A stretch of 64,000 bases of DNA from Longimicrobiales bacterium (lineage in GTDB: Bacteria; Gemmatimonadota; Gemmatimonadetes; Longimicrobiales; Gaopeijiaceae): assembly GCA_965197725.1 (NCBI GenBank), contig CBDANQ010000029.1:1-64000 (forward strand), given 5' to 3'. Positions 4,250 through 8,384 of this stretch are shown here, in pieces. The position numbers and the translations under genes were made by a program. How positions within the stretch are numbered: position 1 is the stretch's first letter; each line of letters opens with the position of its first letter. The notes beneath the pieces are model-generated. The model ran no database searches. It was not told the DNA's origin and saw only the letters and a program-made list of their open reading frames with translations.

Positions 4250-4621
4250 GCGCGCCACCTCATCGAGCATCTCATCGGCCACAATCTCGATCTGCAGGAG
4301 CTTCTTGACGACGGGGTGATCCATCATCGAAACCAGGTCCCCTTCGATTCGGTCGAAACTGCGGTCCAACAAGTGGACGACTCATTCGGGGCACTGATCG
4401 ACAAGCTCACCGTTATGGACGAGGGTCAGTGGTTAGAGGTGGGCCAGTTCTATGCCGGCGATCACTTGATCATGGAGGCGCCGTGCCAGCAACTCGCATG
4501 GATGATGCTCTTGGACGCGGTGCATCATCGTGGTCAGCTCAGCACCTATCTACGGCCGATGGGTAGTAAGGTGCCGGCGATCTACGGCCCGTCAGCGGAC
4601 GACCAGGGCGAGGGTCACTGA
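4250..4621 (+). pseudogene. DinB/YfiT family protein, 5'-truncated
   Basis: In-frame ARHLIEHLIGH...DAVHHRGQLSTYLRPMGSKVPAIYGPSADD; no start codon or N-terminal part upstream of about 4250. Confidence 0.75.
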
Positions 4622-4705
4622 ACCAAGCGGCTTGCTTTTGGGGCTCGCGCGCTACGCTTGCGGTCGGCACATTACTCGAGCAGCAGAATCGCAGATCCGT
4701 TAGAC
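4617..4705 (+). other. Degenerate integron attC site
   Basis: Begins at the DinB stop with ACTGAAC-CAAGCGGCTTGCT (R''/L''-like) and ends GCAGCAGAATCGCAGATCC-GTTAGAC (L'/R', GTTRRRY at 4699-4705); RBS and ATG of the next gene follow within 23 bp. Confidence 0.6.
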
Positions 4706-4727
4706 GGGCTTAGGACGGAGAGCCTCC

Positions 4728-5375
4728 ATGGCAGCTAATGAAGACCTCCTGGGATTCATCCGAGAGGCCCTGAATCGGGGCCTGCCACGCGACGAAATCC
4801 GAGGTGTGCTGAGTCAGGCTGATTGGTCGGACGAAGAGGTGAAGGCAGCACTCCTATCGTTTGCGGCGGTCGACTTCCCCATTCCCGTACCACGACCGCG
4901 CCCGTCGCTCTCGGCTCGAGAGGCGTTCGAGTACCTGGTGCTCTTCGGCACACTCTACATGAGTGCCTTTAGCCTAGGAACCCTTCTCTTCCAATTCATC
5001 GACCTCGCTTTTCCCGATCCGCTCTGGTCCGAAAACCGATTCGAGGTCATAAGGAACACCATCCGGCAGTCGATTGCTGCGCTCGTGGTGGCCACGCCCA
5101 TCTTCCTATATGCGGTGAGGACCAATAGCCGGGCGATGGCTCTCTCACCGCTGAAGCGAACCTCCCCGGTGCGCCAGTGGCTCACCTACCTGACACTAGC
5201 GATCTCAGCAGGCATCCTCATCGGTGATTCCACCACGCTGGTCTACAACGTCCTCGATGGAGAAGTAGCCGTCGGGTTTCTACTCAAAGTCCTGACAACT
5301 GGAGGCATCGCTGGCGCCATCTTCACCTACTATCTCGGCGATCTTAGGCGAGACCAGAAGGAGGTGGAAGGATGA
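4728..5375 (+). CDS. DUF5671-like membrane protein (cassette gene)
   Basis: 215 aa; SAREAFEYLVLFGTLY, IRQSIAALVVATP, VRQWLTYLTL motifs; four TM segments. Confidence 0.75.
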   Translation: MAANEDLLGFIREALNRGLPRDEIRGVLSQADWSDEEVKAALLSFAAVDFPIPVPRPRPSLSAREAFEYLVLFGTLYMSAFSLGTLLFQFIDLAFPDPLWSENRFEVIRNTIRQSIAALVVATPIFLYAVRTNSRAMALSPLKRTSPVRQWLTYLTLAISAGILIGDSTTLVYNVLDGEVAVGFLLKVLTTGGIAGAIFTYYLGDLRRDQKEVEG

Positions 5376-5806
5376 AACCGTCTCTGGGCAAGACCATGTT
5401 GGCCGCCGCCACGACGCTGGTTGTGGGATCCATCATCGCTGGCGTGATCCTGGTCGGATCACCGAGCGAAGGTCGTTTCCAACGACTTGATTCGGGCCGG
5501 ATCGAGGACTTCAAGCAGATCATGGCGGCCACGGACTCCTACTGGGACCGCAACGAGCGTCTCCCGACATCCCTCGACGAGCTTGCTGAAGATGCGCGAA
5601 CGCAGGTGAACACGGTCGATCCCGGCTCGGCTCAGTCCTACGAGCATCGGGCTTTGGATGAGGATACATACGAGCTCTGTACGACCTTCGATCGCGAGTC
5701 GCTTGAGTCAGCGCGCCGGAGCTCGGCTGACTTCTGGAGGCACGGGGTAGGCAGGCAGTGTTTTGAGGTAGATGTTGATACGAGTGGTGAAGCAGCGGAT
5801 AGGTAG
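5372..5806 (+). CDS. Pilin-like exported partner protein
   Basis: ATGA overlap with the upstream gene; N-terminal TM, GSP..R...D..R..D, LP.SL.EL, DP, YELC..F and C-terminal C. Confidence 0.7.
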   Translation: MKPSLGKTMLAAATTLVVGSIIAGVILVGSPSEGRFQRLDSGRIEDFKQIMAATDSYWDRNERLPTSLDELAEDARTQVNTVDPGSAQSYEHRALDEDTYELCTTFDRESLESARRSSADFWRHGVGRQCFEVDVDTSGEAADR

Positions 5807-5866
5807 GCCGTCGGCATTCCCATGAGTGAAAAAATCACAGGGGCCCCGATAGTGGCTGCCGAAGAT

Positions 5867-5890
5867 GCCTAACACTTATCAGGCCCCCGG
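5867..5890 (+). other. attC R'' box interrupted by a relic IS110-type end
   Basis: GCCTAAC (5867-5873) followed by ACTTATCAGGCCCCC; the 10-mer AACACTTATC recurs at the intact IS junction (6014-6023). Confidence 0.55.
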
Positions 5891-6029
5891 AGTCAAGAGC
5901 GCGCATGTCCCCCGGCGCGTCGCGGAGCGGCGCGTAATGAAGTGAGCGTCGGTCGTCGAGTCCTCTGACTTGGTTTCCGTCAACAGGTGCGAGCACTTCC
6001 GAGCTCTGCACCAAACACTTATCGAGGTT

Positions 6030-6331
6030 CAACCGCCGGGTGCCCTTCGAGGCGAGCTCGAAGGAGCGGCGGAGCAGGAGCCTGCTGTGGGCTCCTACGA
6101 CCTAGAAATTCATCTGTGCCCTCGTGCCGTCCGACTCCATTCAAGGTGAGCAGGCTCGGGCCGTGAGGCGCCGGACCAGTTAGCTCCGGGCTCGGGTGAG
6201 GGGCAGAGTCCTGAGTTAGACCGACTTCGATGTGTGGGGAGCGGGAGGAGGCGTCCAATCAAGCGAGGCGGCTGTCAGGCATCCGGTGCCCGCTCGAGTT
6301 AGAAATCGGGGCTCGCGACCTCCCCTCCCCG
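6030..6331 (-). ncRNA. Putative bridge/seek RNA of the IS110 element
   Basis: Non-coding end downstream of the transposase; contains guide-like CTAAC and CGCTTG/CCTTG segments matching an attC-like target CTAAC-AAGCG. Boundaries approximate. Confidence 0.65.
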
Positions 6332-7378
6332 TCAGGTGCGTGTATAGAAGCGTTCGGTGTGGAATGCCTCCCCGTTCTTGAGCATGAAGTAGGTGGCGCG
6401 ACCGATGCGAGCCGCGAGGATGCTGAGCGCCTTGCCCTTGCCGTGGCGGCGCGCGAGCCTCTTGAGATGGCCCTGGCCGCGGACGTTGTCGCGTAGGAAG
6501 AGGACGGCAGCCTCGCTGAACGCCCACTTGAGGTGTGCGTTACCGATCTTGGCTCCTCCGCTGCCGACCCGCTTGCCTGCACTGCGGTGCTCGGGCTTGG
6601 CGAGTCGACAGTAGGAGCTGAAGCGCTGCACTGTGCTGAAGCGAGCGATGTCGTGGATCTCATAGAGCAGCGTGAGCGCCAGGATCCGACCGATGCCGGG
6701 GATGGTTCGGAGCCGCTCCAGCGTGTCGGAGTCGTGGACACGGGCTTCTTCTTCGACCGTACGCTCGAGTTCTCGGATCACGGGGTCGTAGCGATCGGCC
6801 AGGGCGAGGTCCGCCTCAATGGTCCTCTGGATCATGGGATCGTCGAACGCCTGGGCCAGTCCCTCTCGGTTCTTCTTGTAGAGGAGCTGACCCGGGGGCC
6901 GAGGCAGGTTGTACTGATGAAAGGTGTTGCGGACGTGGGCGAGGAGCTCGCCGCGCTTGCGCACGAAGTAGAGTCGGCGCCGGAGCACATCGCGCGTGGC
7001 TCGCATCTGGGGAGGATAGACGTAGGCCACCGGGAACGCACCACCACGCAGCAAGACCGCCGTCTTGTGCGAGTCGATGTGGTCGTTCTTGGCCTTGGCC
7101 CCGTGGATCGCCTTCATGTAGAGCGCATGGCCGAGCACGAAGTGGATCTGCTCACGAGCACATAGATCGGCGAGCCAGTACCAGCAGAAGATGCACTCGC
7201 TGCCCACCACGAGGTCCAAACGGTAGGGCTCGAGGGCGCGAAGCAGTGCCTCGCGCTCACAGCGTAGCCTCTTGTGCAGTCGTATCTTGCCCTGGCCGTC
7301 CAGAACGCAGAGGTAGAGCGTGCGAGCGTGAAGGTCGATGCCACAGTAGTATCGATGCTGGCCGGTGTAGAAGCGCAT
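6332..7378 (-). CDS. IS110-family DEDD recombinase/transposase
   Basis: GIDLH, VGSEC and KNDHIDS (DEDD RuvC-like); IPGIG HhH; HRSAGK catalytic-Ser region; 348 aa, intact. Confidence 0.95.
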   Translation of the reverse strand: MRFYTGQHRYYCGIDLHARTLYLCVLDGQGKIRLHKRLRCEREALLRALEPYRLDLVVGSECIFCWYWLADLCAREQIHFVLGHALYMKAIHGAKAKNDHIDSHKTAVLLRGGAFPVAYVYPPQMRATRDVLRRRLYFVRKRGELLAHVRNTFHQYNLPRPPGQLLYKKNREGLAQAFDDPMIQRTIEADLALADRYDPVIRELERTVEEEARVHDSDTLERLRTIPGIGRILALTLLYEIHDIARFSTVQRFSSYCRLAKPEHRSAGKRVGSGGAKIGNAHLKWAFSEAAVLFLRDNVRGQGHLKRLARRHGKGKALSILAARIGRATYFMLKNGEAFHTERFYTRT

Positions 7379-7469
7379 GGTTCCCCTCCTGGGTTGGATG
7401 GATCGAGCGTCGCGCTCTGATCATTCCGTCCTCTCTGTGAGAGGTCCAGGAGGGGGCCTGCATGAGTAT

Positions 7470-8384
7470 CAAGCGCTTAGCTCGGTCCTTCAAGACGAGG
7501 GCTGGGACGGTTTGTATCTGCCGCCGCCCACCAACAACCCCTTGGTCCACAACCTTGCTGCCCGACGGTGGGAGCTGGCGAAACCTCAGAGCAGCTCCAC
7601 GAGCAGTTGTCTTGCCCGAGAGACTGAGGGAGGATGGCGCCTGGCAGGCAGGTATGACTTTGGCACCCTCGCAGATCCGGACCCAGTCATTGAAAAAGAT
7701 GAGGGGGGCGTGACTGGAGTCTTTACGTATCAGGAGGTTTTTGGTCACGAGTTCGTGGCGCGGCTAGAGGCGCTCCTGGGTGCGACAGGGGCGGAAGATC
7801 GAGCCGCCGCTCGGGACGAGCTGGACACTTTCCTGGTCGATGTAGGAGCCCGGCCTCCCGCTCACCGCCGAGACGAAGACCCGCCCGGGCCTGCACTTCG
7901 GGAAATGTTCACCCAGTTGCGCCACCTGCTGGAGTTGCTGTGGATGCCGCTCGGTGAGGTGGGTACGGCTGAGAGGGCCCGAGCTATTCTGGACGCCCAC
8001 AAGGTTTCTGAGGCTGATCGCCACCAGTGGTGCCTCCGGCTGGCAGTCCCCGCGCTCTCTTGGCCCGAACTCCAAGCCGTCATGGACCAGCAAGAGCAGG
8101 CGGCCAGCTGGGGGAAGCTGATGCAGCTCCCCACGGCCCGACGGCTGGCGGTATGGATCCTGGCCCGGCGTCTCGGCTCACCTCCCGCACGTATCGCGAA
8201 CAAGGTCGGAGCCGGTTCCGACTGGGATTACTTCAACGAGGCCACGAACCCCGTAGACCCCTTCGCTCCAGGGCGCGTAAGCGACCCACGAGTAGGAAGT
8301 GGGGGGTCTTTCGATCTCACGGACGTCACGCCTGCTCCGCGAAGCTTAGAGCGTATCCGCCCGACCTGTGTGACGGCGGGATAA
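7470..8384 (+). CDS. Hypothetical protein of the satellite-like element; 5' part cut by the IS110
   Basis: Long ORF 7377-8384 whose first codons lie inside the IS; removing the IS restores an in-frame ELCTK-QALSSVLQ junction. No recognisable domain. Confidence 0.5.
   Translation, partial: QALSSVLQDEGWDGLYLPPPTNNPLVHNLAARRWELAKPQSSSTSSCLARETEGGWRLAGRYDFGTLADPDPVIEKDEGGVTGVFTYQEVFGHEFVARLEALLGATGAEDRAAARDELDTFLVDVGARPPAHRRDEDPPGPALREMFTQLRHLLELLWMPLGEVGTAERARAILDAHKVSEADRHQWCLRLAVPALSWPELQAVMDQQEQAASWGKLMQLPTARRLAVWILARRLGSPPARIANKVGAGSDWDYFNEATNPVDPFAPGRVSDPRVGSGGSFDLTDVTPAPRSLERIRPTCVTAG

Follow-up and report, generated by a model that had tools for sequence, protein, structure and literature searches.

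The window analysed here is a stretch of 64,000 nucleotides (nt) from a Longimicrobiales bacterium (assembly GCA_965197725.1, contig CBDANQ010000029.1, positions 1 to 64,000). On its minus strand it carries an insertion sequence of the IS110 family, IS1111 group, whose transposase matches PF01548 (E=5.1e-9), PF02371 (E=2.5e-19) and the NCBIfam model NF033542 'IS110 family RNA-guided transposase' (187.7 bits, cut-off 140). The 459-nt region downstream of the transposase gene would encode a long seek or bridge RNA, which the transposase would bind. In the reading that we consider reasonably probable, this RNA would comprise a target-binding loop (loop A), a donor-binding multiloop and, as a side branch of the latter, a second loop of the same scaffold (loop B) that gives no address. 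The element is delimited as follows.

5873..7470, minus strand: IS1111-type element of about 1.6 kb, the span common to all full and partial copies in the genome
6332..7378, minus strand: transposase gene, 348 amino acids, DEDD RuvC-like with C-terminal Transposase_20 domain (open reading frame (ORF) list, translation, Pfam, NCBIfam)
7452..7470, minus strand: left end GATACTCATG with subterminal inverted repeat CAGGCCCCC (7460-7452), from the sequence and the copy alignment
5873..5896, minus strand: right end with subterminal repeat GGGGGCCTG (5888-5880) and terminal ATAAGTG (5879-5873), from the sequence, the copies and the alignment of relatives

Element, ends and copies

Read in the sense of the transposase gene, and with a caret marking each junction, the layout is ..flank..T^GATACTCATG-CAGGCCCCC ... 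GGGGGCCTG-ATAAGTG^TTAGG..flank. By BLAST of the whole assembly, four full copies of 99.7-100% identity are found on contigs C29 (the window), C52, C59 and C60, together with two partial copies on contigs C32 and C40. When the ends of these copies are aligned, the flanks vary from copy to copy and the element span remains constant; the terminal G/C (5873 or 7470) is a shared core base that is not assignable to either end. The initial annotation had placed the element end at 6016/6017 and reconstructed an empty site CCAAAC-AAGCGC. This is to be corrected, because the four full copies share their sequence down to 5873/5874; CCAAAC (6011-6016) is thus internal rather than flanking and is the complement of GTTTGG in one of the donor strands described below. 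The true joined site of the window copy is CCTAAC^AAGCGCTT.

Elements of the IS1111 group are known for inverted repeats of 7-17 bp that lie subterminally, with short extensions beyond them. The window element possesses 9-bp repeats, CAGGCCCCC at a distance of 10 nt from the left terminus and GGGGGCCTG at 7 nt from the right one, both of which are kept in relatives. The long non-coding region downstream and the short one upstream of the transposase gene, likewise typical of the group, measure 459 nt (6331-5873) and 92 nt (7470-7379), respectively. Insertion in the group is site- and orientation-specific and occurs without target duplication; the five own insertion sites show one orientation, a common ..(C/G)(C/G)CTT^GTT(A/T)G.. 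and no duplication other than the single G of uncertain assignment. In 130 upstream regions of relatives, the left end keeps the pattern GATACT.AT..AGGCC. A candidate -35 box TTGACT (5896-5891) and a candidate -10 box GATACT (7470-7465) would be 17 nt apart if the ends join via the shared G, and might form a junction promoter.

Relatives were collected with the transposase as query and amount to 160 loci (designated L), 80 from genomes and 80 from metagenomes. Among the genome loci, transposase identity is 94-96% in two Longimicrobiales metagenome-assembled genomes and 56-74% in many phyla; going by the taxa in the sequence records, the element clade is common in environmental Gemmatimonadota, Desulfobacterota, Nitrospirota and other phyla. 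A search for further insertion sites of the same RNA gave a match in three out of 400 genomes of the class and yielded two complete relatives with one full copy each. Half or more of the element is present in 16 sequencing runs.

A few related sequences may be recorded alongside. A 38-nt fragment at C60:65812-65849, about 700 bp from the full copy on that contig, is 92% like the right end and is probably the solo end of a related element. In a congeneric genome, the 3' non-coding region occurs in copies that have no transposase gene within 1.5 kb; one (L191, G257:C55) keeps the whole region and the other (L194, G257:C2) loops A and B only, and guide and end motifs are degenerate in both, which are remnants or non-autonomous derivatives.

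Probable target loop and putative donor multiloop of the candidate RNA

The initial annotation had noticed two copies of one scaffold in the 3' non-coding region and proposed a bridge RNA with two tandem target-guide modules. The duplication itself is borne out: the pattern TCCAWTCAAG-N25-40-AGTTAG-N3-8-GGGCTCG has exactly two matches in the 64-kb window, both on the plus strand, at 6136-6194 and 6254-6315, with none expected from 100 dinucleotide shuffles of the window. Aligned on the minus strand, the modules have the blocks GAGCCC..TAAC..TTGA(T/A)TGGA in common, and the words read as guides, CTAAC (6302-6298 and 6183-6179), CGCTTG (6265-6260) and CCTTG (6146-6142), lie where they had been placed. 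The module at 6254-6315 is here named loop A, the one at 6136-6194 loop B. The parts of loop A are the following.

6238..6328, minus strand: loop A, closing stem 6328-6314 with 6253-6238 and an inner hairpin (RNAalifold on 28 relatives)
6306-6298, minus strand: loop A 5' guide ATTTCTAAC, unpaired, would pair with the right flank GTTAG.. on the transposase strand
6266-6258, minus strand: loop A 3' guide TCGCTTGAT, unpaired, in the sense of the left flank ..CGCTT and the first element bases

Loop A begins 4 nt past the transposase stop codon, and its closing stem (helix 1) is well supported by covariation, with 10/14 pairs changed on both sides. Its two strands were compared with the insertion flanks of relatives, for which flanks shuffled among elements served as control. 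At variable positions the 5' strand equals the reverse complement of the right flank in 98/185 cases (72.0±5.6 in the control, 0/20000 shuffles reaching this value; n=37), and the 3' strand equals the left flank in 71/95 cases (43.1±4.1, 0/20000; n=19). A sliding scan of loop A peaks at the left flank with z=9.7. The guide match is perfect over 9 nt in L022 (CCCCGTGAT), and in L087 the right flank is matched 9/9. The own insertion sites fit loop A at 7/10, 5/10 and 6/10 positions and, where the left side alone is scored, at 5/5 twice. Judged by these sequence comparisons, loop A behaves as a programmable target loop, the two strands of which match opposite target strands and change with the target. 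Its 5' strand would pair with the right flank on the transposase-sense strand, which is the strand order described for IS1111 elements in the text of Siddiquee et al. (PMC11187229), and its 3' strand would pair with the opposite strand of the left flank. A lack of covariation between guides and flanks had been named beforehand as a refuting result; loop A shows such covariation, and loop B, as set out in the next section, fails the test.

The comparative fold agrees with this assignment. Its pairs are formed in 96.4% of the cells versus 91.3% in shuffled alignments and 41-47% with the partners slid, and 22 pairs are changed on both sides versus 10.1 (0/500 shuffles); the architecture of the whole 3' region is conserved among relatives. 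Both guide strands of loop A are left unpaired, and the proposals of the 3' region as RNA candidate and of the module at 6254-6315 as target loop are therefore upheld by covariation and comparative fold alike. The annotation had further listed a third GTCTAAC on the minus strand. It is present, but the linker in which it lies varies among relatives (GTCTCAC in L012, GTCCACC in L010), and since this linker is unconserved the motif is probably there by chance. It is included in the list of features outside loop A, in which the loop B branch is left for the next section.

6215..6221, minus strand: third GTCTAAC, within the linker that joins loop A to the multiloop
6203..6208, minus strand: CTCTGC, 5' strand of the long-range stem closing the multiloop (helix 5), paired with GCAGAG 6009-6004
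6105..6113, minus strand: candidate right-donor guide ATGAATTTC, single-stranded, complementary to the left end GATACTCAT at 7/9 positions in the window copy
6024..6104, minus strand: inner branch of the multiloop, stem 6103-6100 with 6028-6025 around two variable hairpins
6011..6023, minus strand: candidate left-donor guide GATAAGTG-TT-TGG, single-stranded; 6023-6014 repeats GATAAG of the right end and TG of the core, followed by two bases that resemble the first ones of the right flank
5897..6003, minus strand: 3' tail with two hairpins and conserved GAAA..AAGTCAGAG, from the alignment of relatives; helix 12 has 5 pairs, 2 of them changed on both sides

The second domain, a multiloop closed by CTCTGC/GCAGAG, would be the donor-binding part. 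Its elements follow one another as branch 1 (loop B), strand CACAGATGAATTTC, which includes ATGAATTTC, branch 2 and strand GATAAGTGTTTGG, in which the right end of the element is repeated. The outermost pair of helix 5 is GC in 11, AU in 9 and GU in 4 sequences, the other six pairs being invariant or varying by wobble only. In the inner branch, pair 388/465 is GC in 10, UA in 10 and CG in 7 sequences, and pairs 392/413 and 420/456 change on both sides too. The initial annotation could find no convincing donor loop by eye; candidate strands have now been located in the multiloop at 6113-6105 and 6023-6016, the former (ATGAATTTC) for the left end and the latter (GATAAGTGTT) for the right end.

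For the former, 208 pairs with the left end are counted in 33 relatives versus 187.1±4.5 (0/5000 end shuffles), and clade-specific matches are seen, namely 8/9 in L151, 7/9 in L046 and ATCATT against AATGAT in L157. For the latter, the variable base of ATAxGTG is identical in the strand 6023-6016 and in the true right end in 31/32 relatives (A in 15, G in 15, C in 1). In distant clades, the region of strand GATAAGTGTTTGG is also an exact complement of the left end over 11-12 nt. Both end-match tests ignore relatedness, and the left-end match is imperfect.

Target loop and donor loop are built alike. Each 5' strand has a terminal C before the stem, presumably the pairing partner of the shared G. 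Each 3' strand follows the order guide-TG-xx-TGG, where xx is AT in loop A (the first element bases) and TT in the donor strand (the first right-flank bases). By analogy, these dinucleotides, which follow the core and match the partner DNA, would resemble the handshake guides of IS621 (Hiraizumi et al. 2026, PMC13626964).

Two observations concern the internal copy of the right end. In the C52 copy (C52:19505-21257), the 143-bp tail corresponding to window positions 6016-5874, that is, the segment between the internal and the terminal GATAAGTG, is present twice in tandem, joined at a 13-bp repeat CC(T/A)AACACTTATC; ordinary recombination between the 13-bp repeats could account for this. For ISPpu9, the text of Pares-Guillen et al. 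2025 (PMC12288879) describes that an internal copy of an end motif lets sub-modules move or duplicate, with which the tandem tail may be compared; in contrast to ISPpu9, neither a separate small-RNA gene module nor a solo tail copy is shown here. In L022 (JAZDDA010000239.1), the 3' region is devoid of the internal right-end copy and the adjoining hairpins, and loops A and B as well as the true right end are kept.

Loop B, a conserved side branch

6119..6202, minus strand: loop B, closing pairs CCCTC 6202-6198 with GAGGG 6123-6119, a stem-loop resembling the target loop
6187-6179, minus strand: loop B 5' strand GGAGCTAAC, unpaired in the comparative fold
6150-6140, minus strand: loop B 3' strand CTCACCTTGAA, unpaired in the comparative fold

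A covariance model of loop B, built from 41 sequences and searched over 82 sources (the window and the loci L010-L090), matches 73/80 genome loci and, weakly, an element on a Vibrio campbellii plasmid. In the window it has one match, at 6100-6211, and loop A is unmatched. With a strict text pattern, loop B is recovered in 72/164 sequences. The blocks AACTGG, TTGA, CTGCCCCT and GAGGG are invariant in the 41 sequences, and because it is conserved across relatives with such invariant blocks, loop B is old and under selection. In the Vibrio campbellii plasmid (L090, NC_022271.1, 68-2544), two adjacent IS110-family transposase genes are found; the second is 54% identical to the window protein and is followed by the weak model match (E=0.0015).

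The initial annotation had taken both modules for target guides, assuming that one RNA multiplexes two loops, each for a different attC spacer variant. In its favor, loop B has the scaffold and the invariant core bases of loop A, and both of its strands are unpaired in the comparative fold. In L019 and L024 its 5' strand even matches the right flank 9/9, and the left flank of the C52 copy, ..GCCCTTG, fits the CCTTG of loop B as well as it fits loop A. Moreover, the cognate of loop B, CCTTGTTAGC, is the commonest ..CTTGTTAG.. class in the own genome and occurs there at at least 6 places, so that loop B could still address sites that were not sampled.

Covariation with the flanks, however, is not observed: the 5' strand agrees with right flanks in 60/185 cases (54.2±5.1, p=0.15) and the 3' strand with left flanks in 39/95 (39.2±3.0, p=0.58). 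Where the guides of A and B differ, 56 flank positions agree with A, 18 with B and 45 with neither, and 18/119 is below the 25% expected at random. The own insertion sites fit loop B at 3/10, 5/10 and 4/10 positions and, on the left side, at 2/5 twice; all five scorable sites fit loop A at least as well, A being better in four with a tie at C52, and the five sites of the own genome that fit loop B at 7/10 or more are all unoccupied. The 9/9 cases of L019 and L024 rest on a motif, GTTATGTGC or GTTATATGC, that is recurrent among both guides and flanks. In the comparative fold, finally, loop B is a side branch of the donor multiloop and does not stand beside loop A on an equal footing. A second target selector is thus not supported by these sequence data, and multiplexing is judged very unlikely; loop B appears to be a conserved extra loop. 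A motif GGAGAGTCTCCTTGTTAGCCTG(C/T)C, which matches the loop B cognate over 10 nt, was noted four times (C19:207, C30:1850, C52:70472 and C61:152342), in most cases close to a contig end; it could mark the terminus of another repeat or represent a family of attC-like sites.

Other partners of loop B were looked for. Sliding scans of its strands against both ends and flanks gave background only (z up to 4.8 at scattered offsets), the 7-mer search inside the elements revealed no consistent partner, and mutual information in 25 full elements, which is noisy, gave none either. Among moderately related elements, conservation of the 5' strand of loop B is 0.82 versus 0.68 and 0.62 for the guides of loop A, and that of its 3' strand is 0.61 versus 0.62 for loop A. 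The idea that loop B evolves like a constant guide was dropped, because only its 5' strand is slower than loop A and its 3' strand is as variable.

A role in donor recognition is suggested by a weak fit of the 5' strand to the left end. According to this explanation, (G/C)AG-x-TAAC would pair with G-ATA-CT(C/G), with one bulge and one mismatch, and TTGA would represent the left junction. The bulge model gives 158 pairs versus 148.2±3.4 (p=0.0024), GGAG goes with the left end ..CTC.. and GCAG with ..CTG.. (G-C 14 and C-G 9 versus C-C 4 and G-G 2), two positions are changed together in L036, and the higher conservation of the 5' strand would be in line with it. The model nevertheless requires an invariant A·A mismatch besides the bulge and fails in divergent clades, where the strand of loop B is ACTAAC or GGCACTAAC. 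To the same left end, the multiloop strand is complementary without interruption and with a better fit. Mutual information leaves the columns of the 5' strand and the left end unpaired, and the 3' strand of loop B matches nothing. Left-end binding by loop B is accordingly rated as unlikely.

Loop B might, alternatively, be a third DNA-binding loop without an address, contacting the invariant core (..TTG^TTA..) or the junction cores TTGA and GTTA, with a possible use at excision. Only TAAC/AACTGG and TTGA are invariant in it, and the same bases in loop A contact the invariant part of the site. Since the first element base forms part of TTGA, this block corresponds to the left junction of an occupied site and not to an empty one, and IS1111 excision requires correct flanks according to the text of PMC11187229. 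Against this, the evidence is purely positional, 3-4 bp per strand would be very little, and the invariance would equally be expected if the bases were protein contacts. As an explanation of loop B this is improbable. A widespread clade with a three-part guide RNA, composed of a programmable target loop, a donor multiloop and a third, target-like loop that binds DNA without an address (the attC core or the junction cores), is a somewhat less remote but still doubtful prospect; if it were true, a single RNA could bring together three pieces of DNA, such as the two flanks during excision or an additional attC.

The reading that we prefer, with loop A as target loop and a donor multiloop, takes loop B to be a paralogue of the target loop, which as a side branch of the donor domain would have kept the scaffold and the invariant core-contacting bases (TAAC, TTGA). 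We infer that it may serve as a structural, protein-docking or folding module or bind the invariant core only. Several points weigh against this reading, in addition to the matches of loop B in L019 and L024, the frequency of its cognate and its bulged fit to the left end. Relatedness is disregarded in all covariation tests, so that their p-values are overstated. From mutual information in the 25 full elements, the signals of loop A and of the right end emerge only weakly and that of the left-end guide not at all; this guide is itself imperfect, with a mean of 6.3/9 pairs. The fold of the whole region computed from the single sequence is no better than that of shuffles (z=-0.43) and pairs the guide strands with each other. 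As to expression, the four runs labelled as RNA-type (metatranscriptomic) gave only contigs of 90-95% relatives, one of which, 288 nt long, covers the transposase gene end and loop A; such contigs show neither ends, strand nor transcription. Rfam gave no match up to E=10 for positions 5500-8000 on both strands.

Insertion sites and relation to known systems

The target motif reads ..T^GTTAGR on the transposase strand and RYYYAAC^ on the other strand, which is the core of an integron attC site. The own genome encodes one integron integrase (C32:61015-61956; TIGR02249, 410.6 bits, cut-off 265). Within C32:61015-63979, this gene is accompanied, at a distance of 0.6 kb, by a rearranged copy of the element, which consists of three pieces with about 250 extra bases inside the transposase gene and lacks the 3' non-coding region. 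On the side far from the integrase, the left flank of this copy is a clear attC (GCCTAAC-GTCTC-GCGATT...AATCGC-TT^), and the C52 copy is situated within a long attC-like hairpin. The window site GCTAAGCGCTT^GTTAGGC is a short imperfect palindrome only, and a full attC was not seen at the window, C59 or C60 sites. From these flanks, the attC targeting proposed in the initial annotation appears clear for two own copies and not clear for the window copy.

Many left flanks of relatives look like attC inner repeats, but the tests applied were non-discriminating: a GTTAxx box with an upstream partner was found by folding in 26/63 rebuilt sites versus 16/63 and 22/63 in the controls, and an 8-mer partner in 9/66 rebuilt empty sites versus 7 in the control. 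A strict attC finder (RYYYAAC...GTTRRRY, 6/7 complementarity), the criterion of which is too strict, detected 0 sites in the window, and a loose motif scan was uninformative. In the window, an attC-like site at 4621-4706, ending in AATCGCAGATCC-GTTAGAC, lies just before a two-ORF unit on the plus strand (4728-5375 and 5372-5806), and the GCCTAAC box at which the element is inserted comes after this unit. The local layout resembles a gene cassette, since an attC-like site precedes the unit and a GCCTAAC box follows it.

The closest published counterparts are the seekRNAs of IS1111 elements, of which ISKpn4, ISPst6, ISPa21 and ISPa25 make up the attC group. In ISEc11, ISPa11, ISKpn4 and ISPst6, the seekRNA is located where loop A lies, just after the transposase stop codon (PMC11187229). 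In the text of Siddiquee et al. 2024 (PMC11187229), the seekRNAs of ISKpn4, ISPst6 and ISPa25 lie directly downstream of the stop codon, and in their internal loop each strand matches one of the two DNA strands of the site, the top strand being paired by the 5' one. They are directed to the integron attC core; the same position, strand arrangement and target motif are seen here. Attention is drawn in that text to a short form of 82-86 nt and a long form of about 150 nt of the attC-targeting seekRNAs, the role of the long part being open. Differences concern the insertion point, since ISKpn4, ISPst6 and ISPa25 insert at TTGAA^CGAATTGTTAG (Table 1 of PMC13604230), about 11 bp before GTTAG, whereas the window element, like its family, is found directly at ..TT^GTTAG. 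The window transposase is also remote from the relatives on enterobacterial plasmids found by tblastn (about 27% identity over part of the protein length), which may not be ISKpn4. A second target-like module, as present in the window element, is not mentioned in the text of PMC11187229; in the literature consulted, neither such a loop nor a structure of an IS1111 complex is described, and the supplementary long-RNA folds of PMC11187229 may bear on this.

The candidate donor multiloop is consistent with Durrant et al. 2024 (PMC11208160), who remark that the donor-binding bases of many IS1111 bridge RNAs lie in a multiloop. With the bridge RNA of IS621, as presented in the texts of Durrant et al. 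2024 and Hiraizumi et al. 2026 (PMC11208160, PMC13626964), the candidate RNA shares the division into a target part and a part for the own ends, each with one strand per DNA strand and a shared core. Unlike in IS621, the RNA is located at the 3' end rather than the 5' end, its guides come in reversed order, long subterminal inverted repeats are present at the element ends, and the donor part is a three-way multiloop with an extra branch shaped like a target loop.

RNA-guided recombinases of the IS110/IS1111 type are under development as genome-writing tools, and IS1111 is the less understood branch with regard to the role of the 'long' RNA and the recognition of the ends. The locus and its about 160 relatives give a testable map, with readable target guides, both candidate donor strands and a third loop in 73/80 relatives. 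Judging from the insertion point, which is unlike that of ISKpn4 and ISPst6, and from the distant protein clade, the element may represent a second, independent way by which IS1111 elements address attC sites.

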